A DNA stretch of 64,000 bases from an uncultured Candidatus Micrarchaeota archaeon (GTDB taxonomy: Archaea > Micrarchaeota > Micrarchaeia > Norongarragalinales > CAINOH01). The position numbers were made by a program, and so were the translations under genes. Below are positions 12,844-58,979 of this stretch, one piece after another (position 1 is the stretch's first letter; every line of letters starts with the position of its first letter). The DNA lies in the NCBI GenBank assembly GCA_903851445.1, contig CAINOH010000009.1, forward strand, positions 23,908-87,907. The letters run 5' to 3'. A model generated the notes under the pieces. That model saw nothing but the letters and a program-made list of their open reading frames with translations. It had not been told where the DNA came from and did not search any database.

Positions 12844-12875
12844 GGAAAATAGCCAAAGCGCACGTTCTGTTCCCA

Positions 12876-14639: not shown

Positions 14640-14641
14640 AA

Positions 14642-17233: not shown

Positions 17234-17620
17234 ATGTCTGAAACAAAGAGGGGCCAGGGCGCGTTCGAGTACATTCTGATGCTGTCGGGAGTGCTCCTGA
17301 TAGTGATACTCATAATATTCATACTCCAAGGGACGATAACGGGAACAAACAACACTATGGGAACACAGCAAAACACGCTCAACAGCACAGTAAACGTGGA
17401 CATAGTACCGCAATACACGCAATGTTTGATAGTCACAAGTGCAACTGGCAGCATCACCGGACCATCATACCCCTGCTGCGTCCTTAACGGAGCCGCAAAC
17501 CTTGCCGCATGCACAGCAGCAGGATGCGCCGGAGTACCTGGGATTGTTCAATGCACCCAAACCACACTTGCCAGCTGTCCGACAAGCCAGTTCAACAGGA
17601 AAATAGGAAGGTGCGCGTAA
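17234..17620 (+). CDS. Cysteine-rich mini-pilin (family member 1)
   Basis: MSETKRGQGAFEYILMLSGVLLIVILIIFILQGTITGTNNTM... then PCC...C...C...FNRKIGRCA. Confidence 0.7.
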   Translation: MSETKRGQGAFEYILMLSGVLLIVILIIFILQGTITGTNNTMGTQQNTLNSTVNVDIVPQYTQCLIVTSATGSITGPSYPCCVLNGAANLAACTAAGCAGVPGIVQCTQTTLASCPTSQFNRKIGRCA

Positions 17621-17662
17621 GCGCACACTTTCCCCATCTTTCTTAAGAGGTGAACAAGGAAT

Positions 17663-18001
17663 ATGAGACGCGGACAAGGCGCATTTGAATACATACTCAT
17701 GCTTTCGGGGGTACTGCTGATTGTGATAATCATCATATTCATACTCCAGGGGACAATCGGCGGGGCGAACAACACGATGACAGCACAGCAAAACACCTAC
17801 AACACGTCAGTGTCCGTGGATATCGTGCCCCAGTACACGGCAAACCTAATAGTGATGAGCCAGACTGGCGGACTTGGCGGCCCATACCCCTGCTGTGAAA
17901 ACTTCGCTACGCCAGGATGCACCGGAGTAATAATCAACTGCACCGGCACGCTCAACTGCTATTCAAGCAGGTTCGACAGGAAAGTAGGAAGGTGCGTATA
18001 A
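17663..18001 (+). CDS. Cysteine-rich mini-pilin (family member 2)
   Basis: MRRGQGAFEYILMLSGVLLIVIIIIFILQGTIGGANNTM...PCCENFATPGCTGVIINCTGTLNCYSSRFDRKVGRCV. Confidence 0.75.
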   Translation: MRRGQGAFEYILMLSGVLLIVIIIIFILQGTIGGANNTMTAQQNTYNTSVSVDIVPQYTANLIVMSQTGGLGGPYPCCENFATPGCTGVIINCTGTLNCYSSRFDRKVGRCV

Positions 18002-18042
18002 GCGCATTGCCTCTCTTTTTTTATTTTTAAATAATTGAAATA

Positions 18043-18420
18043 GTGATTGGGACTATGATGAGGCGCGGCCAGGGGGCATTTGAGTACATCCTGATGCTGT
18101 CCGGGGTGATTCTCGTGGTCATAATCATCCTGCTCATACTGCAGGGCAGCATCTCATCCACAAACAACACGCTTGCGGACAACGAGAACAAGTTTGGAAC
18201 CTATACGACGGTCGACTTTGACAACCACCGGACGCCCAACCTGTACGTGGCTGAGCAGACGGGTACTACCACAATAACAAACACGCCCTGCTGCTCGAAC
18301 GTGAACTCGTCTACAGTAAAATGCTACGGCCCGAACAGCGTATCGAGCACCACCATATGCAGCGCAAACATCACGTGCCCGTCGAAATACTTCAACAACG
18401 CAACTGGCACCTGCGGCTGA
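18043..18420 (+). CDS. Cysteine-rich mini-pilin (family member 3)
   Basis: ...MMRRGQGAFEYILMLSGVILVVIIILLILQGSISSTNNTL...PCCSNVNSSTVKCYG...CSANITCPSKYFNNATGTCG. Confidence 0.7.
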   Translation: MIGTMMRRGQGAFEYILMLSGVILVVIIILLILQGSISSTNNTLADNENKFGTYTTVDFDNHRTPNLYVAEQTGTTTITNTPCCSNVNSSTVKCYGPNSVSSTTICSANITCPSKYFNNATGTCG

Positions 18421-18482
18421 GAAAGAAATAATATAAAAAAAACATTAGCTATAGCAGGAACTTTACTACGAGGAGAATAAAA

Positions 18483-18830: not shown

Positions 18831-18892
18831 CAAGAATACGCCGCGGATGTTTTCTGCAAAGAATATTAAGCGCTGCAAGAGTAGCGAATAAT

Positions 18893-19078
18893 ATGAAGCG
18901 GAAAGGCCTTGGGCAGCGCGGGCAGACGTCGACGGAGTACATGCTGCTCATAGCCCTCGGCCTGACAATAGTGATTGTCTCGATCGCAATAGCAACCCAG
19001 ATCAAGGGGATGACCGACTCGCTTCTGGTGCGCGCGCAGGTTGAGCGCGAGTCCACAATCTCTATGATTGTGCGCTGA
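18893..19078 (+). CDS. Minor pilin-like protein (61 aa)
   Basis: MKRKGLGQRGQTSTEYMLLIALGLTIVIVSIAIATQIKG... Confidence 0.55.
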   Translation: MKRKGLGQRGQTSTEYMLLIALGLTIVIVSIAIATQIKGMTDSLLVRAQVERESTISMIVR

Positions 19079-19139
19079 TTGTTTCCCAGCAAGGGCGTTG
19101 CTTCAAAACCAATATTAGTACCCGCAGGCCACACTTTGC

Positions 19140-20183
19140 TTGACAACACTTATGACGGACTTCCTGCTTTTCGCCTTTGCAGCTGCCTATTGCGCAACCG
19201 CCTGCTACATTGACATCAGGCATAGGACAATACCGGACTGGCTCACTTACGGCGGCATCGCAGCCGGGCTTGCCCTTGGCGGCCTCAACTGCCTTGCCCT
19301 GGGAGGTGCCTTTGCTTTGCAATACACGCTGATGCTTGCAACCGCGCTTGCCCTGGGCTACCTCCTGTTCGCCCTTGGCGTGTGGGCCGGCGGCGACGCA
19401 AAATTATTCTGGGCGTTTGCCGCGCTGCTTGGCGCTGCAAGCCGTGCAGACGTGCTCCTTCCGGTTGTGCTGTTTGCGGCCTCGGCGCTGCTTTTCCTTG
19501 CCTGGACGTTCGTTTCGAACGCGGGAACCATACTGAAGAAAAGAAGGGAGTGCACGCGAATAGCTGTTGATTCGGCAGCAAAGGCAGTTGGCGCGGCGGC
19601 AGTTGCCTCGCTTTTTGCCAGCGGCCTTGGCGCGGATTACATCCTTGCGGCAATCGTTGCAGTTGCATTTCTTCTTGTGCAGCTGCCGAAATACGCCTGG
19701 CTGGCGATATTGCTTGTTGCGCTTGCCTTGAACGCCGACGCAACCACAGTCGCGTTCCCGCTCTCCTTTTTGCTTGCATCCGCAATAGGGACGGTGGCGG
19801 GAATAGGCTCGAAAGTCATTGCGCCCAGCCTCACCTACAAAGTGCGCAAGGCCGACCTTGAGGAAGGGATGCTGCCAGCGTACACGGTGATTGAAAATAA
19901 CGGCAAGGCGGTGCTGTTTCGGCCAATGTTCGACTTGGGCGGAATAATCAAGGCAGCACGAAAGGAAAGCGATGTGAAAAAAATCCTCCAAAAAGCGGGT
20001 GCGATTCCGCCTGCCGGCTCAAAAATAGTCGCGGATTCCGCAGACGCGGCCGGGCTTGAAGCTTCGCAATTGCAGAGGTTAAAAAAGCTGGGAAATGTTA
20101 GATGGTTGCAAGTGCGGAGGACAACGGCATTCGCGCCGGTCCTTTGCGTTTGCTTTCTTGCGGCGCTTGCCGGGTTGTTCTGA
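19140..20183 (+). CDS. Prepilin/preflagellin peptidase (A24 aspartic peptidase, PibD/FlaK-like) with a C-terminal extension
   Basis: Two catalytic Asp motifs at canonical spacing: CYIDIRHRTIPD (D~24) and GVWAGGDAKLFWAF (GGDxK, D~86). Eight or more TM helices. TTG start. Confidence 0.75.
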   Translation: MTTLMTDFLLFAFAAAYCATACYIDIRHRTIPDWLTYGGIAAGLALGGLNCLALGGAFALQYTLMLATALALGYLLFALGVWAGGDAKLFWAFAALLGAASRADVLLPVVLFAASALLFLAWTFVSNAGTILKKRRECTRIAVDSAAKAVGAAAVASLFASGLGADYILAAIVAVAFLLVQLPKYAWLAILLVALALNADATTVAFPLSFLLASAIGTVAGIGSKVIAPSLTYKVRKADLEEGMLPAYTVIENNGKAVLFRPMFDLGGIIKAARKESDVKKILQKAGAIPPAGSKIVADSADAAGLEASQLQRLKKLGNVRWLQVRRTTAFAPVLCVCFLAALAGLF

Positions 20184-20196
20184 AGGGTAGACGAAG

Positions 20197-20625
20197 ATGC
20201 GCGGACAGGTCGGGCTGGAATTCTTCCTAATACTGGGCTTCTGCCTTGCAATGCTCACAATACTGATTTCGGACTCGGAGCGGGAGATAACCGAGAACGA
20301 AAAGCTTGACACTGCCGTGCTTTCGCTTTCAGCGCTGAACTCGGTGTCCAACGCAATCAACATCGTTGCCTTGCAGGGCAACGGCGCACAGTTGGCAGTT
20401 AGCGCGTTCGTGCCGTCAAAAAGCAAGTGCTACCTGCCGGTTGCTTCAGAGCAGCGGCTTGCTTGCGACATCGGCGACGCGTACGGCCGGCGCGTGTACG
20501 GGATGAGGCTGATGGCGATGCCGGACACCATCAACGATGCGTGCTACACCACGTACGGCTGGATGGACGTTACCGTGAAGAAGGCGGCCGGAAAGATTGA
20601 AATCTACTGCTCGGGGCAGGCGTGA
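20197..20625 (+). CDS. Class III signal peptide pilin-like protein
   Basis: MRGQVGLEFFLILGFCLAMLTILI...; Cys pairs in the C-terminal part. Confidence 0.6.
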   Translation: MRGQVGLEFFLILGFCLAMLTILISDSEREITENEKLDTAVLSLSALNSVSNAINIVALQGNGAQLAVSAFVPSKSKCYLPVASEQRLACDIGDAYGRRVYGMRLMAMPDTINDACYTTYGWMDVTVKKAAGKIEIYCSGQA

Positions 20626-20632
20626 GCGGCTT

Positions 20633-21055
20633 ATGCTTTCTGGAAGGGACGGAAAACGCGCGCAGACCTCGGTAGAGTACATGATGGCGCTTGCGATGAC
20701 CCTCGTGATCGTTGCGGCCATCATGGTCGGCGGGTTCCGCGAGCTCGAGCTTGACCTTGCGCTTGGCGCTGCAAGGATGGGCGGCACCGACTTTACCGCC
20801 GGGAACCCGGGCTACACGCTTGGAAGGGTTGACTTTACCCTTAACGAGAGTGAAAACACCATTAATGTCACGCCGCACTTCTACCTTCGCGGCGCAAGCA
20901 CGATCCCGGACGAGGACAGGATTACGGCCGGGTCCCTATGCTTTTCCAAGATACGAAGCGTGTTCCAGCCAGGCAACTTAAGCCCGAGCGCGGACTATTG
21001 TTTTGACGCGACTTACCGGCGCTACTGCGTCACTCCGGTAATGGCGCCGGCATAG
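20633..21055 (+). CDS. Class III signal peptide pilin-like protein
   Basis: MLSGRDGKRAQTSVEYMMALAMTLVIVAAIMVGG... Confidence 0.55.
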   Translation: MLSGRDGKRAQTSVEYMMALAMTLVIVAAIMVGGFRELELDLALGAARMGGTDFTAGNPGYTLGRVDFTLNESENTINVTPHFYLRGASTIPDEDRITAGSLCFSKIRSVFQPGNLSPSADYCFDATYRRYCVTPVMAPA

Positions 21056-29580: not shown

Positions 29581-29586
29581 CTTGCA

Positions 29587-29802
29587 TCATCCGGTTATCT
29601 TGAATCGGAAGAAAAGCGGCCGGTCGCCGAGAATCTCTATCTTGTTCTCCCTCGCAAGCCAGCCCAGCGCCGCGTAAAGCTCGGAATCCGAAAGCTTGGT
29701 GGTGCGCTTGAGCTGCGCAATGTTCTGCGGACCTTGCTTGGATAACACGACCCACACTACGCCGGCCTTGCAGCCGAAATACTCCTCTACTTTCACAGTC
29801 AT
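29587..29802 (-). CDS. Small (72 aa) winged-helix-like protein embedded in the glycogen operon
   Basis: MTVKVEEYFGCKAGVVWVVLSKQGPQNIAQLKRTTKLSDSELYAALGWLARENKIEILGDRPLFFRFKITG has a helix-turn-helix-wing pattern. The internal ATG is chosen over the track ORF from 29880. Confidence 0.35.
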   Translation of the reverse strand: MTVKVEEYFGCKAGVVWVVLSKQGPQNIAQLKRTTKLSDSELYAALGWLARENKIEILGDRPLFFRFKITG

Positions 29803-29813
29803 TTTATCCCCCT

Positions 29814-31394
29814 CTACCCCTTTCTGTAAATTTCGGCGTGCCGCGAATAGTTGCGGCCTGCACGCCTGTAGCACTCGCAAATCCGGAGCACGGTATAGTG
29901 CCAGTCAAAATACGGCGACTGCACGCGCTCTGCCGCGCCTTTTGAAATCCTTGCTCGGAGCGCGCCGTCAGAGCACGCCATGGATATGATTCTTGCAAGG
30001 TGGTCCGGCCGAAGCTCGAACTGCGCAGCCATCGGCGCCTTGAACCCGTTCACGCCGTTGCGGATGACCTCGTTCATGCCGCCGTTCGCACCCACTATCG
30101 CAACTGGGCCGGCGGTGCCGTTCTCCTCGCATGCAAGGTCAGCTGCAAGCGCTTCCAACGTGACGAGGCCGAACGGCTCGTAAAGCGAAGGCAGCGCGAC
30201 CACGTCAGCTGCGCATAGCAGCGAGCGCTTTGCGGAGTCTGAAAGCCAGCCGTTGTGCACTGCCACGCTTGATTCAAGACGCAAGCTACGGATGCGGGTC
30301 ATCAATGCATCGTAATCCCCGCCAGACATGTTGCTTGATATCACAAGGCCTATGTCCTTGCCTCGGAGCTGCGCCATTGCGGCTAGGAGCTCATCAATTC
30401 CCTTCCTGCGCTCGGGCCGGCCCAGGAACAGCACGTAGCCCTTCTTTTGGAATATGCCGCGGAGCATCTCGCGGCCCTTGAAGATGTCAGCTATGTGGAC
30501 GTTGCGCCACGGTTCGAGGATGATTCCATTCGGTATTCCCGCGCAATACTCGCTGACCATTTCCAGGCTGTCAGACTCCAAGAGGAGGAACTCCTCGAAC
30601 TTTTCGTCGCGCTCCTCCTGCAAGGCAAGCCAGCCCAGAGGCATCCTCGGCGCGAGTTCCGAGCAGATTTGCCGCTTGCGTGCTGCGAGGTTGTAAAGCT
30701 CGAACTTCGTCTCCGAAATCGAGACGCCCTGTATGAAGTCCGCTGTTGCAAGCGCGGAGGCCTCGATGTCAAGCGGCGCGGAAACCGCGTCAGGTTTGCC
30801 CATCGCGCGGCCGTATTCGCCCGAGTGGAACCGGCATAACAGCGGCCGTGCAAGCTTCTCGCGGCACAAGAACCCTGCTGGGAATGCGAGCCAGTCCTGG
30901 CTGTCAATCACGCCGATGTTTGCGTTGAGCTTTCGCTGCATGAAGTCGGCGACTGTTGGCGCGTATTTCCAGAAGGCGCTTAGCGTGCGGTAGTAGGCGT
31001 CCCTAGATGCGCGCTCGGAGCGTATGCGGAATTTTTCGTAAAGCTCGCCGTGGAAGGAATTGCACTCCTCAACAGGCATCCGGGCGTCTAGGAAATAGCA
31101 CGTGACCCCGCCGCGCTCGGCCTTGTAGATTGAAAGCTGTGGGTAAGCGGTGGTCAGCTCGGAGAACTTCTGCGCAGGCACGAGGTCGGAAAGTGGCGCG
31201 GCTGGGTCGTGCATCGCAAGCACTATGGGCTCGTACTCGGTCTTTCCCTGTTCGTGCGCCTCTTTCCAGGATGCCAATAGCTCGGTCGCAAAGCGCGACA
31301 GCCCGCCAACAGGCCGCTCAAGCTCGGTAATCAAGAAGAGAGCCGCCTTGCTTTCGCGCTCCGGCCTTGCCTTTTGGCTTTTGTGTTCGGTCAT
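29814..31394 (-). CDS. Glycosyltransferase (GT4/GT5-like, glycogen-synthase-related) with an extended N-terminal domain
   Basis: N-terminal ELERPVGGLSRFATEL (GGL motif); C-terminal Rossmann half with LYEPFGLVTLEALA (E-x7-E-like). Confidence 0.65.
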   Translation of the reverse strand: MTEHKSQKARPERESKAALFLITELERPVGGLSRFATELLASWKEAHEQGKTEYEPIVLAMHDPAAPLSDLVPAQKFSELTTAYPQLSIYKAERGGVTCYFLDARMPVEECNSFHGELYEKFRIRSERASRDAYYRTLSAFWKYAPTVADFMQRKLNANIGVIDSQDWLAFPAGFLCREKLARPLLCRFHSGEYGRAMGKPDAVSAPLDIEASALATADFIQGVSISETKFELYNLAARKRQICSELAPRMPLGWLALQEERDEKFEEFLLLESDSLEMVSEYCAGIPNGIILEPWRNVHIADIFKGREMLRGIFQKKGYVLFLGRPERRKGIDELLAAMAQLRGKDIGLVISSNMSGGDYDALMTRIRSLRLESSVAVHNGWLSDSAKRSLLCAADVVALPSLYEPFGLVTLEALAADLACEENGTAGPVAIVGANGGMNEVIRNGVNGFKAPMAAQFELRPDHLARIISMACSDGALRARISKGAAERVQSPYFDWHYTVLRICECYRRAGRNYSRHAEIYRKG

Positions 31395-32662
31395 GCCAAC
31401 AACTTCTCCTTTTCAATAGGGGCTGACTCGCTGTCAGCAACTTTTTCGACTTTTGCGATTTTGCCATCCACTTGCTCTTTGAAGTCCGTGATTATGTTCA
31501 TGAAGCTGATGAAATTGTCATAGGGCCCCGAGTCCTTGTATGGCGAGAAGTAGTCGTGCACCTCCCGGTCGGACATTCCCTTGGTGGAAAGGTACATGAG
31601 GTGGTCGGAAGTCTGCAGCTGCCTGTAGGTTTCCCACAATTGCACGTCGTTTGCCTTCCGAAGTTTGGGAAGGAGCGCCTCCAGTTCCGAGAAGCAGGCG
31701 CGCTGTATGCGGTTGCCAAGCCAGGCGCTCGTGTTGCGCTCCGCGTCCGCCCACGATATTTCGCTTGGGACGCTGATTGCGTCGCAGGGCTCGAAACTTT
31801 CCGCCGCCTCGGTTACTGTTGAGAAGGACAGGCCGGGATGGCGGTGCACCTCTGCAGGCAGGTGCGAAAGGAAATCTAGTATTCCTGTATCCTTCCAGTG
31901 GTGCTCGCCGAAAGTCTCGTAGTCCATGAACAGGTTGATTACCTGGCCGGGGGTTGCGGAAAGCCAGGTTGCGTACTTGTCAGCTGTGAGCGGCCACTCC
32001 TTCCACGATTTTGCCGAGAAGCGGAATCCGACGTCATCCGAGAGCTTGTAATTGCGCATGAGCAGCTTGAGCCTTGAACAGCCTTGCGGCCTGTAGACGT
32101 AGTTCGGCGACCTCCAGCCCAGGATGCGTTCGACACCCTCGGTGATGATTGCCTTGTACCCGAGGCCCTCGACAACTTGCGCAATGCGGTCGGAATAAAT
32201 CGCCTCGGTATTGCGGAAACTCTTTGGCGCAACTCCCAACAGGTCGCGGACGAGCTGGTTGTGTATCTGCACCTGTTCTTTGAACTCGGACAGATCCGAG
32301 TACAGCGAAGAGAGTGAATGGTAATACGTCTCGTCAAGGACGTCGACCCTTCCGGTTGCGCAAAGGTTGCGGAACGACTCAACTACTTCTGGCCGGTACT
32401 TCCTTGCCTGCATCAGGAGCGTTCCTGTGATGCTGAGCGAGAACCTGAACTTCCCGCGGTTGTCATCAAGCAATTGCTGCAGAATCCTGTTTGCGGGAAG
32501 GTAGCACTGGTCAGCAGCCTTGTTGAAGTAGTGCTCGTTCATCCTGTTGTCAAAGTAGCGCGACTCAAGGCTCGCGCCGTCGCCGCTCCCAATCCCGAAG
32601 TAGGAGAACCGTGAAAGCCGGACGGGCTGGTGCACGTGGAAGCACAGGCAGACTTTGGGCAT
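31391..32662 (-). CDS. Glycoside hydrolase family 57 (alpha-amylase/4-alpha-glucanotransferase/branching-enzyme family)
   Basis: N-terminal CLCFHVHQPVRL (GH57 HxHQP motif); 423 aa. ATGA overlap with the downstream GT. Confidence 0.8.
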   Translation of the reverse strand: MPKVCLCFHVHQPVRLSRFSYFGIGSGDGASLESRYFDNRMNEHYFNKAADQCYLPANRILQQLLDDNRGKFRFSLSITGTLLMQARKYRPEVVESFRNLCATGRVDVLDETYYHSLSSLYSDLSEFKEQVQIHNQLVRDLLGVAPKSFRNTEAIYSDRIAQVVEGLGYKAIITEGVERILGWRSPNYVYRPQGCSRLKLLMRNYKLSDDVGFRFSAKSWKEWPLTADKYATWLSATPGQVINLFMDYETFGEHHWKDTGILDFLSHLPAEVHRHPGLSFSTVTEAAESFEPCDAISVPSEISWADAERNTSAWLGNRIQRACFSELEALLPKLRKANDVQLWETYRQLQTSDHLMYLSTKGMSDREVHDYFSPYKDSGPYDNFISFMNIITDFKEQVDGKIAKVEKVADSESAPIEKEKLLA

Positions 32663-33943
32663 CTAAATCATCGTTATTGCGGCCTTGGCCGCAAGCCTTG
32701 TTCTGATTGCCTTGTCGTAAACTCCGATTGTTTGTCTCGCCACCTCGTCCCAGGTTATGGACTCGGTTTCGGCAATAGAATTTTCGCGCAACTCCTCGTA
32801 AAGCGGGCGATAGGAAAGGACTGCGAGGATTTTCGAGGCCATCTCGTCGGTGTCCCAAAAATCTACTGTCAGGCAGTTCTTGACCCGTTCGCTTACCCCG
32901 GAGGTCTTGGACACTATGGTTGGAGTGCCGCTTGCCATCGACTCCAGAGCAACTATCCCGAAGGGCTCGGATATGCTTGGGAACACGAGGACGTCGCTCG
33001 TGCAGAGGATGCGCTTGAGCTGGTCGTCGGACACGTAACCGAGGAACATTACGTTCTGGCTTATCCCAAGGTCAAACGCCATCTCAACAAGCCTTGGGAG
33101 CATATCGCCCTTTCCGCTCACCAGGAACTTTACGTTGCGGTCCCTGGAGAGCACCTTCTGCGCAGCACGCAGGAAATATTCCACGCCCTTCTGCACCGAA
33201 AGCCTGCCGTGGTAGAGCACCACCTTGGTTCGTTTTCCAGAGGCGTCCTGCATGGCCTCCTTGTACTTTGGGAACTTTGAGGAATCTATTGCGTTGTAGA
33301 TTACACTGACATTGCGTTCGGCCGCGCCGAACTTGTCGAGCAGCAGCTGGGCGCTCCTTTTGCTTACCGTGATTATCTGGTCGGACTGCTGCATCATTTC
33401 CCTTTCAACTTCCAGAATCCATTCAAAGGGCCACAAGTCCGCTGTGCGGTCGTATTCGGTGCTGTGGACTGTTGACACGAGCGGGAGGCCGGTGCTGTGC
33501 CTTAGGGCAATGCCCGCTTTTGCTGAAAGCCAGTCGTGCACGTGCACCACGTCATAATGCCGTTCAGCGTGCTTTTTTTGCACGAGGAGCCGGGCAAGGT
33601 GATTGTAGGCGGCCACTGCCTCGAAGAACCCGAGGTCGTCGGCCTTGGACTGACCGGGCATTTGCAAAAGCCCGGCAATCCCGCTTGCGTGGAATCGGGC
33701 TTGGGTCGGGGAGCTGCCGTAGCAGCCATAGGTTGTTGGCGCCAGGCCAAGTTGCAGTTCGTGCGGGTCGAGCAAAACCCAATCCGTCTGGTAAATGTTG
33801 AGCCAATGCTCGTGGATATCGTAACTTGTCTTTGGCATGAAAAAGTCAATTTCGACCCCGCGGTTGGCAAGTGCCCGCGTCAGTTCGTAGCAGTGCGTGC
33901 CAAGGCCGCCGCTGATAAAAGGCGGGAATTCCCAGCCAAGCAT
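32663..33943 (-). CDS. Glycogen synthase-like glycosyltransferase
   Basis: MLGWEFPPFISGGLGTHCYELTRALANRGVEIDFFMP matches the archaeal GlgA N-terminus. C-terminal ISEPFGIVALESMASG. An alternative start at 34033 would add 30 aa. Confidence 0.7.
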   Translation of the reverse strand: MLGWEFPPFISGGLGTHCYELTRALANRGVEIDFFMPKTSYDIHEHWLNIYQTDWVLLDPHELQLGLAPTTYGCYGSSPTQARFHASGIAGLLQMPGQSKADDLGFFEAVAAYNHLARLLVQKKHAERHYDVVHVHDWLSAKAGIALRHSTGLPLVSTVHSTEYDRTADLWPFEWILEVEREMMQQSDQIITVSKRSAQLLLDKFGAAERNVSVIYNAIDSSKFPKYKEAMQDASGKRTKVVLYHGRLSVQKGVEYFLRAAQKVLSRDRNVKFLVSGKGDMLPRLVEMAFDLGISQNVMFLGYVSDDQLKRILCTSDVLVFPSISEPFGIVALESMASGTPTIVSKTSGVSERVKNCLTVDFWDTDEMASKILAVLSYRPLYEELRENSIAETESITWDEVARQTIGVYDKAIRTRLAAKAAITMI

Positions 33944-34343
33944 TGCAACACGAAGACTTCTCGTCACGCGACCACGATTGGGAAAATTGCGTATGAAGCC
34001 GGCTATGGGCCAAAACAAACCCGCGCCAACCACTTACCCAAAACGCCAACAAGCGGCGGGTAACTCCCCAAGCAGATGGGTGCTTTTGGGACTTAAAAAG
34101 GTGATGAAAACAACAAAAAACAGGGAGTGATTTCTTTGGAAAAAAGCGTCTTGTGTGAAAAAAAAGGCATACTAAAGCCTATTTTCTAAAAAGGAGGATA
34201 ATTAGACGTCTATTTTGTAAAAATAGGCAGGAAATAAGAAAACAAAAAAATACTGGAAGTGTGGTTTGCAAGGAGCATAATGCGCCGGATTGACAAATAG
34301 ACGAAAAATAATGCTTTTCTAGGCAAAACGAGTAAGAAAAACA

Positions 34344-35379: not shown

Positions 35380-36780
35380 GAAATGGAGTGAAACTCCTTT
35401 TTCGAACAATCAGTTAAGCAAATACAATCTTTAATAGCCGTTGCTCGAACTTGACTGTGACATGCAACCGAGATATGGTTTTTGCTCGGAAAGGTGAATC
35501 ACCCCGACTTGGTGTAAACCGAAGTCGCGGCTTCTTCCTTCAATGACGAGCCTGTTGGTTCATCTCCGGAAGCGTTTCTTCCCGCCATTCCAGCGGTAGC
35601 TCTTGTGAGTATATTTATAGCAGCGTTCACATCCCTATCCAAGACTAGGCCGCAGTGCGGACAATCGTGCGTCCGCACAGTCAAGTCTTTCTTGACTACC
35701 TCGTGACAACTGCTACATTCTTGTGTAGTATTCTTCGCATCAACGAACACGACCTTGCAACCAGCACCCGCCGCCTTGTATGCTATCATGTTCGAGAACG
35801 TTCCCCAACCAACATCATTGATTTGCTTGCCGTAATTCTGTTCAGCCATCCGCCGAACCGCAAGCCGTTCTAGGCCAATTAAGGAATACGAATTTACGAG
35901 CGACGTGGTTGTCTTGTGCAGGAAGTCACTACGAGCGTTGGCTATCTTCTCGTGCACCAAAGCTACCTTGCGCTTAGTTTTAAGTCTGTTCCTGCTGCCA
36001 TTCTTCGCTCGCGATAATCTCCGCTCGCACTTCGCCAACTTGTCTCGATGTTTGTCAAAGTGGCGCGGATTTTTAATCTTCAAACCGTTCGACAACGTGG
36101 CGAACGTAGTCAAACCCAAATCAATCCCGACTTTTCCGCCGTTGTTCATCAACGGTTCTACGTCATCCTGTCCGGCAGTGAAAATCGCGAACCACTTGCC
36201 CGAAGCTTCTTTCTTCAGAGTCAGGGTTTTTACTTCGCCTTTGATTGGACGGTGTTGCCTGATACCCAACTCGCCAAAAGGCGTGACCCGCAACTTTTTG
36301 TCCGATAAAATTTTGAAACCAGACTGAGGGTAATGCAAACTCTTCATTCTATCAAAGGATTTGAATCTTGGAAAGCCTCCGTTTAAACCTGCTTTTTTAC
36401 GTCTAATCTTGACTCTCAATGCATTAGTAAGACGAATGAAAACATCCTGCGCTACCTGCGAGTGCAACCCAGAACCCTTGCTTATTTCCTGCAAAGTCTT
36501 TCGCGTTGGAAACTTTCCAAAATCATCATACAACTGTTTCGCCAACGCCAAGCCATAGTTCCACAAGTTCTTAGAAGCCCACAAGTGAGTCCGCAACAAC
36601 TCGTCCTGCTGCTTGGATGGATACAAACGAAACTTCCAAGATATCATAAGCTATACGCCTATAATACTGCAAAACCTTTTTGGTTTATACGCTATTCCAC
36701 ACTGCATTTCCGTTGATTCGTTTCCATCCCCACCAATGGTTCAGACGTGGACGTCTCAACGACCAGATTTATAATCCGAG
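35380..36780 (-). mobile_element. Solo-tnpB IS200/IS605-like element (no tnpA); approximate boundaries
   Basis: tnpB without an adjacent Y1 transposase. AT-richer flanks relative to the ~60% GC surroundings. Ends not mapped. Confidence 0.45.
35499..36647 (-). CDS. tnpB: IS200/IS605-family TnpB (OrfB) RNA-guided endonuclease-like protein
   Basis: N-terminus MISWKFRLYPSKQQDELLRTHLWASKNLWNYG is the classic OrfB_IS605 start. RuvC-like core. C-terminal zinc finger CSSCHEVVKKDLTVRTHDCPHCGLVLDRDVNAAINIL. Confidence 0.85.
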   Translation of the reverse strand: MISWKFRLYPSKQQDELLRTHLWASKNLWNYGLALAKQLYDDFGKFPTRKTLQEISKGSGLHSQVAQDVFIRLTNALRVKIRRKKAGLNGGFPRFKSFDRMKSLHYPQSGFKILSDKKLRVTPFGELGIRQHRPIKGEVKTLTLKKEASGKWFAIFTAGQDDVEPLMNNGGKVGIDLGLTTFATLSNGLKIKNPRHFDKHRDKLAKCERRLSRAKNGSRNRLKTKRKVALVHEKIANARSDFLHKTTTSLVNSYSLIGLERLAVRRMAEQNYGKQINDVGWGTFSNMIAYKAAGAGCKVVFVDAKNTTQECSSCHEVVKKDLTVRTHDCPHCGLVLDRDVNAAINILTRATAGMAGRNASGDEPTGSSLKEEAATSVYTKSG

Positions 36781-43771: not shown

Positions 43772-45916
<2,145 letters not shown>

Positions 45917-45951: not shown

Positions 45952-46407
45952 ATGAACATCAAGTTATTTGCACAGTGCACGTTGGCGCTACTTACGGCGT
46001 CGTTCCTAGGCTACGCGTTCAGCTACATCGGCGTTGCGGGAACGGTAATCGACTCGTTCTGGAAGCTGGTCGCGTTCGACCTGGGTGCGTCAATGATTTT
46101 TGCTTTTGCCTGGCCGCACGTGCGCGGAGTGAGAAAGGGCGACGCCCTTGCAACGGACTTGTCAATGGGCAACCTGCGCATGCCGGGGTTGAACGTGATG
46201 GTCGGGACTTTCGGCATCGGAAACGCATTCGCAGCTGCAAACGGCAGGATTGGCCAGAAGATACGCATACACTTGGCGGACGGCAGGCGCGGAGAGGCTA
46301 AGATAGTGGAATACGCCGGGACTTTCTCGCCTGCGCGCGTGCAAATCCTTGAGATGGAAAAGCCTGCGCCCCAGCACATCGTCGAGAACGGCGAGCGGCT
46401 GCTCTGA
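45952..46407 (+). CDS. Membrane-anchored protein, unknown function
   Basis: Two N-terminal TM helices then a ~80 aa beta-rich tail (possible OB/NfeD-like). Weak. Confidence 0.4.
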   Translation: MNIKLFAQCTLALLTASFLGYAFSYIGVAGTVIDSFWKLVAFDLGASMIFAFAWPHVRGVRKGDALATDLSMGNLRMPGLNVMVGTFGIGNAFAAANGRIGQKIRIHLADGRRGEAKIVEYAGTFSPARVQILEMEKPAPQHIVENGERLL

Positions 46408-46558
46408 TTCTCTGCACGCACAGCACCAAAGGCCCGACAGAACCGGCCAGGGCAATCTCTGGTTTTTTTTCTTCAAATATCCCCCATTGCGAGTTGCTTA
46501 AAAAAGCCGGTTGTTTAACCAATAGGAACCACGCCGCAAGGCCGGTTTCAGTGTTATT

Positions 46559-48382
46559 ATGTCTCGTCGCGGCCAGGGCGCATTTGAGTACCTTCTGATG
46601 CTTGGAGGAACAGTACTAATCGCAGTAGTAGTCATCATAATGGTACAAGGTTCCGCCCAGAACGCGAACAGCACGCTCAACGAGTCAACAAACGACTATT
46701 TGGCATACATAAATAGTGGAATCAACAATGCGATTGCAACCACTCCAACGCCTATTGTAACTGTTTTGCCTTCGTCAACCCCAACCACCAGCCCAACGCC
46801 ATCCTCAACTCCCACGGTAACTCCAATGCCTACCACTACCCCGACTGCAACGCCAACGGCTACTCCTACGCCCACATCAATGCCTACTACTACGCCAACT
46901 GCAACAGCTACCGCAACGCCAACTGCTACGCCCACACCCACTACGAGTCCGACGCCAATTCCTACTGCAACGTCCACGCCAACACCTACTGCTAACCCAA
47001 CAGCAACGCCAACCGCAACGTCCACGCCAACACCTACTGCTAACCCAACCGCAACGTCCACGCCAACACCTACTGCTAACCCAACAGCAACGCCAACTGC
47101 TACGCCCACTCCCACCGCAACCCCCGTGACAACTGGAAGCGCCATCATAACGACGAGCCCAGGAGGGGCGCAGGTAATGGTCGATGGCCAGCAGAAGGGG
47201 GTGTCAAGTCCTAGTCTCACAGTTTCTTCCCTGGCGCCGGGAACACACGTCGTGAGGGTTTCAATGCAGGGCTATTTTGACGCGTCGCTTAACGCTGTCG
47301 TACAACTCGGACAGGCCACGCCGGTGACGATTAGCCTCATCTCGCTCTCCGTCCCCACGCCAACACCGGTGCAGGTACCAGCAAGCCCGAAACTGACGTG
47401 CGATTACTCCTTTGCGGCTATCCCGCCGGTGACGAAGACTATCGCGCGGTCGGGAAGCGCCGCGGGAGTGCGCATCGGGTTCTCCGAGGATTTCGGCGCA
47501 ATCGCCACGAGCTTCGAACTCGTAAATCCCGCGAACGGCGCCTCAGTCAACGTGCTAGAGTCACGCAGCGGAGCGGGTTCGGCGTGGCAGTACACTGGCC
47601 AGGCTACCGCTTACGACGGTGGCGGTGCCCTCATCAACCAGGCAGCCGGCAACTCCCTCGGCTCCCAGTGGGGGTACCAGAGCGTGCTCAATGTGAACAC
47701 TTCGGCGACGGGAGTAACGGCATCGGCAGCGAACTGGGTCCCAAATCCTTCAGACACGCTCAACGGTGACGGAACGTCTCCCTGTGCGTCCCAGTATCCC
47801 CCGGCAGTCTTTGACCTCGGCAAGCCCTCGATGAGCGTCAGCGACATTGCGACGTCGCTGGGGACCGCACTCAACATCACGAGCACATATACGCTTCAGT
47901 CGACCATCGACCAATATTGGAAAATGTACGTTCCCGGCGAAGCAATCTACATGAACAGGCAGGTAGCCCGCGACGCCAACCTGCGCATGTACATCCTAGG
48001 ACCAGGCTGGACGGAAGGTCCCATTCGGCCGTACTACGACAATTTCACCATAGCCCACGCCACGTACGTGCGCCCTGTTCCACAGTGGGGGGTATGGATG
48101 ATTACCGCAGATGTCCAGTACACTGCGTTCGTGTGGAACGTGGGTGGAAAGGACGTCGGCGTCGTGCTTCCGGGCGCGAAGGGCTCCCAGCGGCTGGTGA
48201 ACAATACCTACTGCTCCAACGAGGCGGATTACAGCTGCGGCAGCATGGACTATGGTTTTTGGGAACAACTCGATCAGAGTTCCTCATATCCTAACGGGGC
48301 AATCCGCAGCTACTCCTTCGGCTACCTTGTCGGCTCGGTGCCCCAGCTTGAAGCCATCATAGGCAGGTCCATCACGGGTTAA
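46559..48382 (+). CDS. Large pilin-adhesin: class III signal peptide + Pro/Thr linker + PEGA domain + globular C-terminal domain
   Basis: MSRRGQGAFEYLLMLGGTVLIAVVVIIMVQG...; ~135 aa TPTATP-type linker; SPGGAQVMVDGQQKGVSSPSLTVSSLAPGTHVVRVSMQGYFDASLNAVVQ matches the PEGA motif; ~370 aa C-terminal domain. Confidence 0.7.
   Translation: MSRRGQGAFEYLLMLGGTVLIAVVVIIMVQGSAQNANSTLNESTNDYLAYINSGINNAIATTPTPIVTVLPSSTPTTSPTPSSTPTVTPMPTTTPTATPTATPTPTSMPTTTPTATATATPTATPTPTTSPTPIPTATSTPTPTANPTATPTATSTPTPTANPTATSTPTPTANPTATPTATPTPTATPVTTGSAIITTSPGGAQVMVDGQQKGVSSPSLTVSSLAPGTHVVRVSMQGYFDASLNAVVQLGQATPVTISLISLSVPTPTPVQVPASPKLTCDYSFAAIPPVTKTIARSGSAAGVRIGFSEDFGAIATSFELVNPANGASVNVLESRSGAGSAWQYTGQATAYDGGGALINQAAGNSLGSQWGYQSVLNVNTSATGVTASAANWVPNPSDTLNGDGTSPCASQYPPAVFDLGKPSMSVSDIATSLGTALNITSTYTLQSTIDQYWKMYVPGEAIYMNRQVARDANLRMYILGPGWTEGPIRPYYDNFTIAHATYVRPVPQWGVWMITADVQYTAFVWNVGGKDVGVVLPGAKGSQRLVNNTYCSNEADYSCGSMDYGFWEQLDQSSSYPNGAIRSYSFGYLVGSVPQLEAIIGRSITG
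46740..47147 (+). repeat. Imperfect tandem DNA repeats (36/48-bp units, acgtccacgccaacacctactgctaacccaac...) encoding the Pro/Thr linker
   Basis: Units begin at 46970, 47018 and 47054. These produce the antisense [12 protein letters not shown] at 46696..47220. Confidence 0.7.
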
Positions 48383-48439
48383 GGCTGTTCGTTGCGTACG
48401 GAGCGAGTGGGATGCATACGGGCAGCGACAAAGTTTGAG

Positions 48440-49510: not shown

Positions 49511-49643
49511 CCGGGCGCGTTTTTACAAGCCGGACCTAGATGACTTGACGGGATTGTAATTTATTACGGACTGCCAGGGGCGGTTTCCAGTGATTATACC
49601 CCCCTGCACATCGTTTATATCCCCGCGGCGAATGTTGATATTT

Positions 49644-50096
49644 ATGCCCAACCACGGCCAAGGCGCCTTCGAATATCTCCTGATGCTTGGCGGCGTCGTG
49701 CTCGTCGCAGTAATCGTCATAATCATTATGCAGGGTTCGGCTTCCGGGGCAAACAACGCGCTGAACACATCCGCTTCGAGTTACGGCTCGTTTATCACGA
49801 CCGGCGTAGAGAACGTGCTTACGACGGGGTCGGTGAATGGGGCGTCACTCGTTAAATTGACCTGCACCGCAGGCACGGACACCAGCGATATGATTAGCAA
49901 CAATGTAAACTGCAACTCGGCGTGCCAGGCCGCAGGGTATTCAAGCGGGACGACGGTATGCGCCGTCCCTGGCTGCAGCGCGTCATGCAAAAACTGCAGG
50001 CAGATTTCCTGCTATGGCACAGCCTGGAACATAATCACCGACGACTGCTCCAAACCGGGTTCTTGCAAAATTGACAATTGCTACTGCTCCCCCTGA
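49644..50096 (+). CDS. Cysteine-rich pilin (class III signal peptide)
   Basis: MPNHGQGAFEYLLMLGGVVLVAVIVIIIMQGSASGANNALN...; 16 Cys in the C-terminal 90 aa. Confidence 0.65.
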   Translation: MPNHGQGAFEYLLMLGGVVLVAVIVIIIMQGSASGANNALNTSASSYGSFITTGVENVLTTGSVNGASLVKLTCTAGTDTSDMISNNVNCNSACQAAGYSSGTTVCAVPGCSASCKNCRQISCYGTAWNIITDDCSKPGSCKIDNCYCSP

Positions 50097-50168
50097 TTCA
50101 GCAAAGATGCCGGCTTTTTGATGCGCCTGCGGCGATTCCTTTTTATTGCCCGCGACAATGGTCTTTCT

Positions 50169-51728
50169 ATGAAGCTGCGCGGCCAGACTGCCCTTGAATA
50201 CCTGCTGATTCTTGCCGGAAGCATAATGATAGTCATCGTCACCTCAAGCGTGCTCAACGGCGTGATGGCACCCGGGATGGAAATCGTGGGCAACAACAGC
50301 ACGCCCCTGCTGTGGCCCCCGTCAGGTGAGTGCGGCCTTGCCGCAACCGTTTACGGTTCCTCTGCAACGGGATACTCCGGGGCCTTCTGCGCTGTTGGAA
50401 CGCCAAACCCAACCCCTGTTTTTCCACCTCAAGGCAGCTCGGTAACGTGGTTCTGTAATGTAACAGATGGCGGGTACAACGCGTCATGTTCAGCGTCAAG
50501 GGCAGCAACATCCACCCCGACGCCTACTCCGACACCATTACCAGTTAATGGTGCTTGCGGAATCAGCAGCGCATACGCACTCACGGCAACAACCAGCGGG
50601 CTCTGCTCAAGCGGAACGGTCTACTCATTCGCCGGCACGGGGCCGTGGACTTGGTTCTGCAATGGCACAAACGGCGGTACGGACGCGAGCTGCACAGCAA
50701 CAGTAATAGTGGACGGCACCTGTGGAACTTCAAACGGGGCAAACCTTACCGCAGCGCCAACAACAAACCTGTGCTCCAATGGGACTAATTCCAGCGTCTC
50801 CGGCACAGGACCGTGGACGTGGTTCTGCAATGGCACGAACGGCGGCACGAACGCCAGTTGCTGGGCAAACGTCATCATCAACAACGGCGGTGCCTGCGGA
50901 ACAGCTGCAAAGAGGTATGCGTACAATGTCACATCATATGGCACTGACACCATCTGCAATGCCGGAATCGCTTCTCCCTCCAGCCCGGCATTCCCAACCC
51001 AAGGAGCGTCAGTTTCTTGGAGGTGCATAGAAGTTAACCTGCCTGAAATTACGATTAATGTTTGCACAGCTTCAAGAGCAGCAGCCCCTGTTAATGGTGC
51101 TTGCGGCACTGCCTCAAAGACATATGTGTACACTGCCACCAGCTATGGAACGGACACGTTCTGCGCCAATGGCACCGCCAGCCCAGCAAGCCCGGCATTC
51201 CCGGCCCAAGGACAAACAATTCCTTGGACTTGCGTGGGAACAAACAACGGAACCAACGCATCCTGTTCCGCCACCAGGCCGGCCAAGATTAATGGTGAGT
51301 GTATAACTTCTGCCTACTTTTCAAACCTTAATGTTTTCAGCTGCGGATATTCCGAAATGCACGATAAAATCGGCAGCCCCGTACTCAGTTGGTGCGTGGC
51401 TGGAAGTATGACTAGTTACACTGGCGGATATACTGGACCTTGGACATGGAAATGCCTCGGAGCATACGGCGGAACCAATGCGTCCTGCTCTGCCTCTCAT
51501 ACAAGTGAATATCATCCGAGTTTTACTTGCGGTTACTCTGGACGCACAACTGCCGCTTGCGTAGCCGCCGGAGGGTACGTTGACTGGTCCGTGTGTGACG
51601 GTTGCGGGTTCTGCAAAAGTTACAGTGCAGCACGTGGTTCGGGCTACTGTGATTTCCTGACAATTGCTAATGTTCCTGCTATTCCTTATGGTTATTTTGA
51701 TAATGGCGTATATTGGGGTTGCATATAG
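50169..51728 (+). CDS. Large pilin-adhesin with six tandem Cys4 repeat modules
   Basis: MKLRGQTALEYLLILAGSIMIVIVTSSVLNG...; modules of ~55-65 aa, e.g. NGACGISSAYALTATTSGLCSSGTVYSFAGTGPWTWFCNGTNGGTDASCTA, repeated six times. Confidence 0.65.
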   Translation: MKLRGQTALEYLLILAGSIMIVIVTSSVLNGVMAPGMEIVGNNSTPLLWPPSGECGLAATVYGSSATGYSGAFCAVGTPNPTPVFPPQGSSVTWFCNVTDGGYNASCSASRAATSTPTPTPTPLPVNGACGISSAYALTATTSGLCSSGTVYSFAGTGPWTWFCNGTNGGTDASCTATVIVDGTCGTSNGANLTAAPTTNLCSNGTNSSVSGTGPWTWFCNGTNGGTNASCWANVIINNGGACGTAAKRYAYNVTSYGTDTICNAGIASPSSPAFPTQGASVSWRCIEVNLPEITINVCTASRAAAPVNGACGTASKTYVYTATSYGTDTFCANGTASPASPAFPAQGQTIPWTCVGTNNGTNASCSATRPAKINGECITSAYFSNLNVFSCGYSEMHDKIGSPVLSWCVAGSMTSYTGGYTGPWTWKCLGAYGGTNASCSASHTSEYHPSFTCGYSGRTTAACVAAGGYVDWSVCDGCGFCKSYSAARGSGYCDFLTIANVPAIPYGYFDNGVYWGCI

Positions 51729-57374: not shown

Positions 57375-58979
57375 TCACGACCCCGTGTATCCGCCGTCGG
57401 TTATCGTCCAACCGTTGTTTGCAATTAGCGTGGTGTTCCTTGCCGTGACCGAGGCGGAAGAGTAACGGGATTTGCCGCCATCAAAAGTAACTCCCGACTG
57501 AACCGAATGGCTTGCCCAGCCGTTGAGGAGAGCGTCGTAATTGGTGGTTGACAGCGTCACGCCGGAGAACATCCCGCGCATATCAGTTACACTTTTTGTG
57601 TTCCATTTGCCTATCGGCTGGTTGAAAGCAGACGCGTTGGCAAACATATACTTCATTGTCCAGACTTTCCCCATATCCCAGCCGCCAATAGGCTGGTTGA
57701 ATGAATGCGCGTTGGCAAACATCCAGTCAATGGAACTGACGCTGCTCGTATTCCAGCCCGAGACGTTGCCATTGAACGCCGACGCGCCGGAAAACACGCC
57801 AGACATGAATATGGCATTGCGCGTATCCCATCCGCTTAAGTTCTGGTTGAATGCAGGCGCGCCCGCAAACATTCCATTCATCATTACTACGCTTCTGGTG
57901 TTCCAGTTGCCTATCGGCTGGTTGAACGAAGACGCATACCCAAACGTGCTGTACATATCTACTACGCGGCTGGTGTTCCAATTGCCTATCGGTTGGTTGA
58001 ACGAAGACGCCCAACCAAACATGTTATTCATGGTTATGACGCTGCTGGTATCCCAGCCGGTAATGTTGCCGTTGAAGGAGGTCGCATTGTAGAACATGAA
58101 GTCGAGCGAGGTCAGGCCGGTAAGGTTGAGGCTGTCCGAACCTATGAAGTTCATGTTTGAGCAGCCGTAGAAGGTGCCGCAGGAGCTTGCGGTGTACCTG
58201 AAAACGCCATAGCAGCCGCCGCATTCGGCGTCTGGGGGGGAGCCCGGAGGGCAGATGTCGCTCGAACAGCCCAAGGTGCCCGAGTAGGCGCGGATGTAGG
58301 GATTGTAATTTCCGATGTTCAAGTCGCCCCAGTGGGTGATGTTGATTATCTTCAGCTTGTCCCCGCCATTGTTGAACGAAAAGCTCGTTTCGTTCGTGTT
58401 GGTGACGTTAATCGTGTAAACTCCCGGCGAGACATACACGTGCGTGGTGATGTTAGAGTCTGACCTGCCGTCGCCCCAGTTTACCGAGAAATAACCTGTT
58501 ATCGGGAGCACGATTGTCGTGGAGTTGCTGCCGGTGCCACCGATCTTGCGCGTGTCCCAAACCGCGCTGAATGGCGAAGGCTTTGGAGTCGGGCTGGGCG
58601 TGGGGCTTGGAGTGGGCGTTGCGGTAGGTGTTGCAGTAGGCGTCGCAGTCGGCGTGGGACTGGCCGTTGGTGTTGCAGTAGCAGTGGGTGTAGGAGTTGC
58701 AGTAGGAGCGGGTGTCGGACTCGGCGTAGGTGTGGGCGTAGCAGTTGGCGTTGCGGTAGTTGTTGCTGTCGGAGTAGCAGTAGGCGTTGGAGTTACTGTG
58801 GATGGGGTTATGCCGTAGTTCTGTACTAACTCCCAATAGGTGCTTGACTGATTAGTAACGGAATTGTTTGCCTGGCCTTGCGAGGCCTGCACGACCATCA
58901 GGGTGATGGCTGCAATGAGCACGCTGCCGCCTATCATCAACAGGTATTCGAATGCGGCCTGGCCGCGGGAAACTGACAT
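57375..58979 (-). CDS. Pilin-adhesin fusion: class III signal peptide + Pro/Thr linker + DUF285-type tandem repeats
   Basis: [33 protein letters not shown]...; ~80 aa TPTATP linker; repeated ~26-aa units F(G/A)[24 protein letters not shown] characteristic of DUF285 repeats. Confidence 0.7.
58572..58808 (-). repeat. Low-complexity tandem DNA repeats encoding the Pro/Thr linker of the DUF285 pilin-adhesin
   Basis: Produces the antisense [13 protein letters not shown] (58519..58818). Confidence 0.65.

Follow-up and report, generated by a model that had tools for sequence, protein, structure and literature searches.

Results

A single gene joins a class III signal to a Thr/Pro linker, a PEGA domain and a C-terminal head

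We analyzed 64,000 nt of contig CAINOH010000009.1 (assembly GCA_903851445.1) from an uncultured Candidatus Micrarchaeota archaeon, hereafter called the window, and concentrated on one gene that encodes a modular surface protein of 607 amino acids. The product has four parts: a class III signal, a Thr/Pro linker, a PEGA domain, and a C-terminal domain that we refer to as the head. The gene and its parts are located as follows (positions are those of the window).

46559..48382, + strand: complete gene of the 607-amino acid modular surface protein, a single uninterrupted open reading frame (ORF)
46494..46506, + strand: candidate archaeal transcription factor B recognition element (BRE)/TATA element GCTTAAAAAAGCC, picked by eye
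46559..46573, + strand: leader peptide MSRRG, from the PF04021 match, with predicted cleavage between G5 and Q6
46574..46735, + strand: mature carrier module (amino acids 6-59), a pilin-type helix at amino acids ~7-33 plus a short polar segment
46736..47131, + strand: Thr/Pro-rich linker (stalk), amino acids 60-191, built of degenerate tandem repeats
47138..47335, + strand: PEGA domain, a small beta-sandwich, PF08308 profile positions 3-66 of 71
47351..47389, + strand: second short Pro/Thr linker VPTPTPVQVPASP, amino acids 265-277, read from the translation
47384..48379, + strand: head domain, 332 amino acids (276-607), from family search, AlphaFold2 and Foldseek

A sequence-only reading of the gene had described a class III signal fused through a Pro/Thr (PT) linker of ~135 amino acids to a PEGA domain and a further domain of ~370 amino acids. 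When the protein was compared with Pfam, Class_IIIsignal (PF04021) matched amino acids 3-28 at the N-terminus with 27.6 bits (curated cut-off 23.7), and PEGA (PF08308) matched amino acids 194-259 with 40.6 bits (cut-off 20.8; E 2.4e-10), so that both domains proposed earlier are borne out; the outcome named as refuting that reading, a lack of any PEGA hit, did not arise. The linker measured 132 amino acids, close to the earlier figure, and the C-terminal domain is present, although, at 332 amino acids, somewhat shorter than had been proposed. The PEGA domain is probably a spacer only, and the informative module is the C-terminal domain, to which the sequence-only reading had given no identity. 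The same gene organization is repeated in at least six independent public assemblies, which argues that the gene is not an assembly chimera. The putative BRE/TATA element, which we infer from the letters only, lies ~55 nt 5' of the ATG, and a run of T residues (46459-46474) lies 3' of the upstream gene. Scans of the window for tRNA genes and Rfam families gave no matches.

Public gene calls hide the signal peptide

The public protein collection holds only a 401-amino acid version of the protein (P0001), which starts at the internal Met207. A search with the full-length protein was dominated by unrelated PT-linker proteins, its sole informative match being the self-match to P0001, after which the domains were searched separately. 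In other assemblies, an ORF antisense to the linker is annotated as a gene of 150 or 122 amino acids.

46696..47220, - strand: spurious antisense ORF (GVGVAV... repeat), the mirror of ACN/CCN repeats

Gene callers have arrived at the Met207 start in at least six assemblies, and, taken at face value, their calls would mean a 401-amino acid protein without a signal peptide next to a separate antisense gene. We give this two-gene interpretation hardly any credence and reject it for the following reasons. The Met207 start cuts the PEGA domain, the match to which begins 13 residues upstream at amino acid 194; the 618 nt upstream of Met207 are open in frame and start with the class III signal, which scores above threshold; the antisense ORF consists of a low-complexity GV repeat, and the linker indel described below is in frame; and the signal-PT-head architecture recurs in a paralogue in the window (57375-58979, - strand) and in relatives. 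Because the PEGA domain starts before Met207 and the upstream frame is open and carries the signal, we conclude that the locus contains one gene and not two. Truncation at the PT repeat together with an invented antisense ORF is a practical annotation problem of standard gene callers, and it makes the signal peptide and the modular nature of the protein invisible in public protein databases. A scan of genome contigs with the 401-amino acid part yielded nothing beyond a weak PEGA-like match, without relevance here, in a gammaproteobacterial metagenome-assembled genome (MAG), and an exact-DNA scan of Joint Genome Institute (JGI) metagenomes for the target gene gave no match; the population was found in European Nucleotide Archive (ENA)/NCBI assemblies only.

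The carrier module resembles small pilins encoded next to a prepilin peptidase

The N-terminus consists of the short basic leader MSRRG followed by QGAFEYLLMLGGTVLIAVVVIIMVQ, with Q at +1 and E at +5 ahead of a hydrophobic stretch. The arrangement Q6-x-A-x-E10-x-x-x-M fits QxSxExxxL, which we take to be the pattern of the PF04021 family, and the leader would be expected to be cleaved before Q6 by an A24 peptidase. The carrier helix is the sole hydrophobic segment of the protein (Kyte-Doolittle maximum 2.76), and the short polar segment after it contains two N-x-S/T sequons. The machinery that such a protein would need is encoded elsewhere in the window.

8874-10370, + strand: T2SSE pilus ATPase, Pfam PF00437 above cut-off
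10367-11269 and 11273-12298, + strand: two T2SSF platform proteins, Pfam PF00482 above cut-off
17234..18420, + strand: three tandem small Cys-rich class III-signal proteins of ~110-125 amino acids, from motif scan and alignment
19140..20183, + strand: prepilin (class III signal) peptidase, Peptidase_A24 PF01478, 44.3 bits

The match of the prepilin peptidase to Arc_PepC (PF06819) is weak, at 19.9 bits below a cut-off of 23.4. The three small proteins adjoin the peptidase gene and have the helix QGAFEY(I/L)LML...LQG in common with the target, the first of them matches PF04021 with 30.3 bits, and we regard them as candidate major pilins. In alignments, the carrier has 14-23 of 30 residues in common with the small pilins of the window, the p168 paralogue and the paralogue with a DUF285 head: 14-15 of the first 30 mature residues with the three small pilins, 17 with the DUF285 paralogue and 23 with a 150-amino acid protein at 49644-50096. 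A motif scan found ~15 ORFs in the window in which a hydrophobic stretch comes after a Q-x-[AST]-x-E-[YFL] signal. The set of one ATPase and two platform genes is also that of the layout called "system 1" (Epd-like), which has been described from methanogens and DPANN archaea (bioRxiv 10.64898/2026.04.22.720090).

The machinery as a whole forms a type IV filament locus at 5700-20800, with the ATPase, the two platform genes, the A24 peptidase and ~11 class III-signal ORFs. It holds two sets of three tandem class III paralogues, a QGATEYLVILG... trio at 15231-17040 (- strand) and the QGAFEYILML... trio at 17234-18420 (+ strand).

The name "pilin", which the sequence-only reading had used, thus holds at the level of the signal/helix module and of the presence of the machinery, whereas a globular pilin head was not found. 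The main alternative, which we consider possible, although clearly short of an even chance, is a membrane-tethered ecto-protein that stays outside filaments and needs its class III signal only to be processed by the peptidase and to be anchored or positioned. The stalk would then span the space under and through the S-layer; only ~25 polar residues follow the helix, and the target gene lies far from the pilus locus. The Sulfolobus bindosome has sugar-binding proteins with class III signals (cited in PMC4858521), and an S-layer is present in Micrarchaeota according to a preprint (bioRxiv 10.1101/2021.04.28.441871). However, the helix is conserved with the small pilins next to the peptidase, as co-assembly requires, and Pfam detected neither a substrate-binding-protein domain in the target nor an ABC transporter in its neighborhood.

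Two linker alleles in public assemblies differ by one repeat period

The linker contains 57 Thr, 35 Pro, 17 Ala and 10 Ser residues. Its DNA had been described as imperfect 36/48-bp tandem repeats, and Tandem Repeats Finder recovered both periods, one of 36 bp (2.3 copies, 97% matches, score 161, 47009-47092) and one of 48 bp (4.0 copies, 68% matches, 46928-47109), together with overlapping arrays of periods 12, 18 and 24; the repeats are therefore not a matter of chance. The repeat family also shows 12/18/30-nt spacing, and near-identical head-to-tail repeats have a unit length divisible by 3. The most regular part is the following.

46967..47097, + strand: putatively recombinogenic linker core, with a perfect 47-bp direct repeat (46967-47013 = 47051-47097, lag 84 bp) and the near-perfect 36-bp x 2.3 array

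We compared linker length across seven assemblies including the window, using assembled contigs and taking gene spacing as a proxy for length in the assemblies without a DNA file. One contig (L001, ERZ27313106) shows 100% identity with the window across 1951 nt apart from a clean 84-bp deletion, which keeps the reading frame and removes 28 residues, equivalent to one 48-bp plus one 36-bp unit. The start of this deletion can be placed anywhere from 46967 to 47014 because the perfect 47-bp repeat flanks it. A second contig (L002) has the long linker form. In ERZ1426811, ERZ1426812, ERZ1426834 and the window the genes are spaced 770 nt apart, against 686 nt in ERZ1426843. Across the seven assemblies there are, thus, two linker alleles that differ by 84 bp, a difference that repeat collapse during assembly would reproduce. 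Being in frame, the indel would act, if at all, on the length of the stalk and not as an on/off switch.

We regard slippage or unequal recombination in the cells, on the one hand, and collapse of the 47-bp repeat by short-read assemblers with a linker that is invariant in the population, on the other, as about equally likely origins of the difference. The deletion is exactly one repeat period in otherwise identical sequence, as if a loop in a de Bruijn graph had been skipped; the short-allele contig is only 1951 nt long; and two more assemblies break at the repeat. Conversely, the short spacing (686 versus 770 nt) occurs in two unrelated assemblies, ERZ1426843 and ERZ27313106, the long form is found in four others, some from the same project, and the name of the short-allele contig gives k=141, which exceeds the 131-nt repeat core. 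The sequence-only reading had considered the linker prone to slipped-strand length variation: two in-frame alleles at the 47-bp repeat speak for this part of the claim, although assembly collapse fits them about equally well.

The head belongs to a family with a predicted beta-supersandwich fold

The head matches no Pfam or NCBIfam family. Searched alone, amino acids 276-607 retrieved five relatives in a word-indexed search, and an exhaustive HMMER search of 1.84 billion representatives extended this rare family to 108 clusters, 44 of them below E 1e-30. A class III signal was present in none of the 81 other members inspected, and the N-termini of most of these resemble Sec or lipoprotein signals of bacteria; the two named members come from a deltaproteobacterial MAG and a Myxococcota bacterium. 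Accessory modules were found in some of the 82 aligned members (F5/8-type-C in five, ricin-B and dockerin in three each, and a type IX secretion system (T9SS) tail in one). The closest bacterial homologue, P0121 (42% identity; L016 8001-16249 of bacterial MAG GCA_964503465.1), is encoded among five consecutive secreted proteins that carry dockerin and GBS_Bsp-like repeats.

The AlphaFold2 model of the head, built from the 82-sequence alignment, is all-beta with a predicted local distance difference test (pLDDT) score of 97.2 and a predicted template modeling (pTM) score of 0.93, and an earlier model from six sequences has the same topology (pLDDT 83). In a Foldseek comparison with the PDB, the best match was the glycoside hydrolase (GH) family 174 endo-1,3-fucanase 8jd7_A, also an all-beta supersandwich (Foldseek probability 1.00, query-normalized TM-score (TMq) 0.48, E 7e-6, root-mean-square deviation 8.4, 12% identity). 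The other matches at probability 1.00 were YidC P1, aldose-1-epimerases, the polysaccharide lyase (PL) family 17 alginate lyase and GH38, all with TM values of only 0.36-0.48, and OpgD (GH186) came next at lower probability. Both models retrieve YidC-P1, aldose epimerases, GH38, PL17 and OpgD (probability 0.9-1.0, TM 0.35-0.48), and the matches have E values of 7e-6 to 1e-3 and identities of 8-12%. The prediction of the C-terminal fold, which the sequence-only reading had proposed as a check, thus gave a confident model, and the head as modeled is a galactose-mutarotase-like beta-supersandwich, a match at the level of fold only; this fold makes up, or is found alongside, the catalytic parts of carbohydrate-active enzymes. 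Four Cys residues (C281, C409, C552 and C560), each present in most of the 82 aligned members, fit an extracellular protein, and the family has a conserved polar/aromatic cluster of R336, S337, W343, Q344, N360, Q361, N365, Q370, W371, Y464 and R476.

From the model and the family, we take the head to be a module that would bind or cleave glycans, as a lectin or as an enzyme, and that represents an undescribed family. The specific alternative that the head is a tethered polysaccharide-degrading enzyme (an undescribed GH or lyase) that serves nutrient scavenging or a breach of the host envelope, and not a lectin-type adhesin, we consider rather unlikely. The PT linker would in that case act as it does in cellulases. 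The best structural match is catalytic, and mutarotases, OpgD/GH186 and PL17 are also among the matches; a minority of the family carries F5/8-C, ricin-B or dockerin modules, which are usually attached to catalytic modules; and R336, Q344, N360, Q361, N365, Y464 and R476 form a strongly conserved polar cluster. On the other side, no carboxylate besides D399 is conserved, the GH174 residues D119, E120 and E218 (PMC11943901) have no demonstrated counterparts in the head, the family shows no sequence relation to any PDB chain including GH174 and its TM values are below 0.5, and the supersandwich also exists as a non-catalytic carbohydrate-binding domain.

The gene is a lineage-specific insertion, and its carrier is found with different heads

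We fetched eleven related Micrarchaeia loci through the 151-amino acid protein encoded immediately upstream of the target gene; CDC48 in these loci is ~93% identical in amino acids, and NurA 72-90%. In all eleven, the gene of the 151-amino acid protein is followed by the convergent NurA gene after an unconserved spacer of ~25-250 nt with no ORF between. As the flanking genes abut in the related loci, we conclude that the 2-kb gene is a lineage-specific insertion.

46408..48439, no strand: lineage-specific 2,033-nt insertion, from the stop of the 151-amino acid protein's gene to the stop of NurA

The insertion holds nothing but the target gene and the sequence upstream of it. A mobile-element origin was considered and rejected, as the borders show no repeats, target-site duplication or insertion sequence (IS) genes or signature. 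Breaks at 46423 and 46969 are shared by two independent assemblies (L004, L002 and ERZ1426674 contigs); the former lies 16 nt after the gene of the 151-amino acid protein, at the left edge of the insertion, and the latter at the start of the 47-bp repeat. The break at 46423 might reflect the coexistence of strains with and without the insertion.

The eleven loci contain DNA relatives of the first ~130 nt of the coding region only, i.e. of the carrier helix (72-85% identity), and none of the PEGA domain or the head. The set of class III-signal genes downstream of NurA differs from one related locus to the next. The heads that Pfam identified on class III carriers in these loci are Fibrinogen_C, CarboxypepD_reg, and NosD/beta-helix with Gly_rich_2; CarboxypepD_reg is a beta-sandwich like PEGA, and Fibrinogen_C has a lectin-type fold. 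Such Fibrinogen_C (ficolin-like lectin) heads on class III-signal proteins lie at L008 8687-9520 and L015 8367-9542; the fibrinogen C-terminal domain is known mainly from animal proteins. The distribution of the carrier was judged from the fetched loci and from one JGI metagenome protein (P0046), the N-terminus of which is, by eye, near-identical to that of the target over most of the first 45 residues and the body of which is wholly different, with Cys-rich modules, a PT linker and CarboxypepD_reg. The window itself contains a further example.

57375..58979, - strand: paralogue with class III signal, PT linker of ~85 amino acids and DUF285 head, from Pfam and translation

PKD was matched weakly in this paralogue, and the DNA of its PT linker has 75% identity with that of the target over 217 nt. 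Its exact first-start translation is not in the protein collection, where another start codon may have been called.

Two more class III-signal proteins are encoded just downstream of NurA in the window, a Cys-rich one of 150 amino acids (49590-50096, + strand) and one of 536 amino acids with repeated Cys modules (...GPWTWFCNGTNGGT[DN]ASC...; 50118-51728, + strand). The homologues of these two proteins vary strongly in length and content among the related loci.

The phyletic pattern bears on whether the target could be an S-layer or S-layer-associated structural protein, for which there are two hints. The PEGA domain was first defined in cell-surface proteins (PMC2447325), and NCBIfam gave a faint match to an anammox S-layer glycoprotein. 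The latter reached 16 bits against a cut-off of 1400, however, and was limited to the PT/PEGA stretch. Further, an S-layer protein should be part of the core genome, yet the gene is absent from the 11 close relatives, and both the class III type of the signal and an architecture like that of variable adhesin-like paralogues speak against this role. For these reasons we reject an S-layer protein, to which we assign very little probability.

Other features of the window

The window has archaeal genes for an eRF1/Pelota-like protein, RFC, an ABCE1-like ATPase, CDC48, NurA and a tRNA-splicing endonuclease. The class Candidatus Micrarchaeia belongs to the kingdom Nanobdellati (DPANN), and the organism that carries the window is a tiny, probably symbiotic archaeon. 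The 151-amino acid protein (45952-46407, + strand) belongs to no Pfam family and is unusually conserved: its cluster at 90% identity has 21 members, was seen in many metagenome assemblies, and includes a protein from the MAG of a "Candidatus Micrarchaeia archaeon". The name "amino acid transporter", given to it in one source, looks doubtful. CDC48 has no intein in the window (43778-45916), whereas in the related locus L006 (3033-6950) it is a 1305-amino acid protein with an intein (Intein_splicing plus LAGLIDADG endonuclease). An IS605 OrfB/TnpB-like gene (35499-36647, - strand; OrfB_IS605, Cas12f1-like TNB and helix-turn-helix domains) lies in a stretch of lower G + C content (GC), ~0.49-0.50. 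A glycogen-type cluster at 27514-34033 (- strand) encodes a GDE_C amylo-1,6-glucosidase, a GT1-family glycosyltransferase, a GH57 protein and a starch/glycogen-synthase-like glycosyltransferase, and such a cluster is notable for a reduced DPANN genome.

Discussion

We propose that the target is an archaeal "modular pilin", stalked adhesin or glyco-active surface protein that would work as follows. An A24 peptidase would remove the leader, and the helix that remains would anchor the protein in the membrane, from which the ATPase/platform system would extract it into a filament of small pilins, or to the tip or base of one. A stalk of up to ~40 nm would be formed by the Thr/Pro segment, which is probably O-glycosylated and extended; it would carry the head beyond the S-layer, and its length could shift in 84-bp (28-amino acid) steps through slippage or recombination between the 47-bp perfect repeats. 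The head would bind, and possibly cleave, a glycan on the envelope of a partner or host or in extracellular polysaccharide, and the organism would thereby gain exchangeable adhesion specificity. Archaeal type IV pili that recognize S-layer glycans are described for the Ups pili of Sulfolobales (PMC7064770). Taken alone, the architecture with class III-dependent surface display is, in our judgment, highly probable. The whole chain of steps seems to us to have slightly better than an even chance, and incorporation into a filament falls just short of one. We consider improbable a more far-reaching scenario for a DPANN episymbiont, in which a bacterial glycan-active head at a filament tip, on a stalk of variable length, would recognize or digest the coat of the host, head cassettes would set host range, and the head would represent a new carbohydrate-active enzyme (CAZyme) or lectin family.

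Several observations weigh against the proposed mechanism. No globular pilin head lies between the carrier helix and the PT linker, only ~25 polar residues, which makes packing in the body of a filament doubtful, and the gene is 26-38 kb away from the pilus genes, outside their locus. The short linker allele, which lacks 84 bp, is possibly an assembly artefact. The likeness of the head to solved structures is at fold level only, with TM below 0.5, and a profile of the 82 members found no PDB chain at E<=10, with 8jd7 in the Foldseek PDB library; membership in GH174 or in any solved family is therefore unsupported. The sole well-conserved carboxylate of the head, D399, is present in 68 of the 82 members, so that classical two-carboxylate glycosidase catalysis is unsupported. 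Finally, the head has a GC at third codon positions (GC3) of 0.73 and a likewise native-like GC, and thus no compositional trace of recent transfer; its acquisition from bacteria rests on phyletic distribution only.

The nearest counterparts by design are the bacterial modular type IV pilins, such as Streptococcus sanguinis PilB with a von Willebrand factor A (vWA) module and PilC with a lectin module (Raynaud et al. 2021, PMC8179133; PMC9934059). As in these, a pilin-helix carrier bears a grafted binding module and one type of carrier is found with many heads (PMC8179133). The target adds non-pilus modules (PEGA and the supersandwich) to a pilin part that is reduced to the helix. Bacterial modular pilins have a full pilin module, made of the helix and a beta-sheet head, and their linker is a short loop, whereas the target, in an archaeon, has a helix stub followed by a 132-amino acid PT stalk. 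It has an archaeal-type signal (PF04021, Q at +1), whereas the survey of modular pilins used the bacterial IPR012902, and the combination of PEGA with a supersandwich head is not among the architectures named in the accessible part of that survey (PMC8179133).

A second point of comparison is provided by low-complexity linkers. Pro/Thr linkers that are O-glycosylated occur in secreted glycoside hydrolases, and a Thr-rich stalk occurs in the halobacterial S-layer glycoprotein. Like the linker of the target, these are Thr/Pro spacers between anchoring or binding and functional modules, encoded by repeats and prone to changes in length. Unlike them, the target linker joins a pilin-type anchor to a head, and its glycosylation is putative. 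We know of no PT-stalked multi-domain substrate that has been characterized in Epd/"system 1" loci. These loci, including Epd/EppA of Methanococcus maripaludis, otherwise resemble the one studied here in the PF04021 signal, the ATPase with two platforms, the A24 peptidase and the many pilin-like genes (PMC3875500; bioRxiv 10.64898/2026.04.22.720090), but the Epd pilins characterized so far are small, unlike the target. In the Sulfolobus bindosome, too, a class III signal positions a carbohydrate-recognizing protein at the archaeal surface (cited in PMC4858521). We nevertheless rejected the target as a bindosome substrate: neither it nor its neighbors have a solute-binding-protein Pfam domain, the solute-binding-protein fold, ABC transporter and Bas-type genes of that system are missing, and the phylum is another one.

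Overall, the design principle, as seen in modular pilins, class III-signal adhesins and PT linkers, is known, and it is the combination that is new; the target protein does not overturn current concepts. Beyond what had been read from the gene itself, the analysis adds the pilus machinery in the window, a family of similar fusions and the lineage-specific insertion. The points of interest are an uncharacterized head family, a repertoire of exchangeable heads in an episymbiotic archaeal lineage, and a systematic mis-annotation. If the linker polymorphism is true, it would give this uncultivated archaeon a simple means of tuning the length of the stalk of one of its surface proteins. Physical contact with hosts is essential to DPANN archaea, and, to our knowledge, the molecules that mediate this contact are almost unknown. 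The locus offers a concrete candidate for such a contact molecule, a pilin-type carrier with swappable heads, one of which represents, with high confidence, a new beta-supersandwich family with likely glycan specificity.

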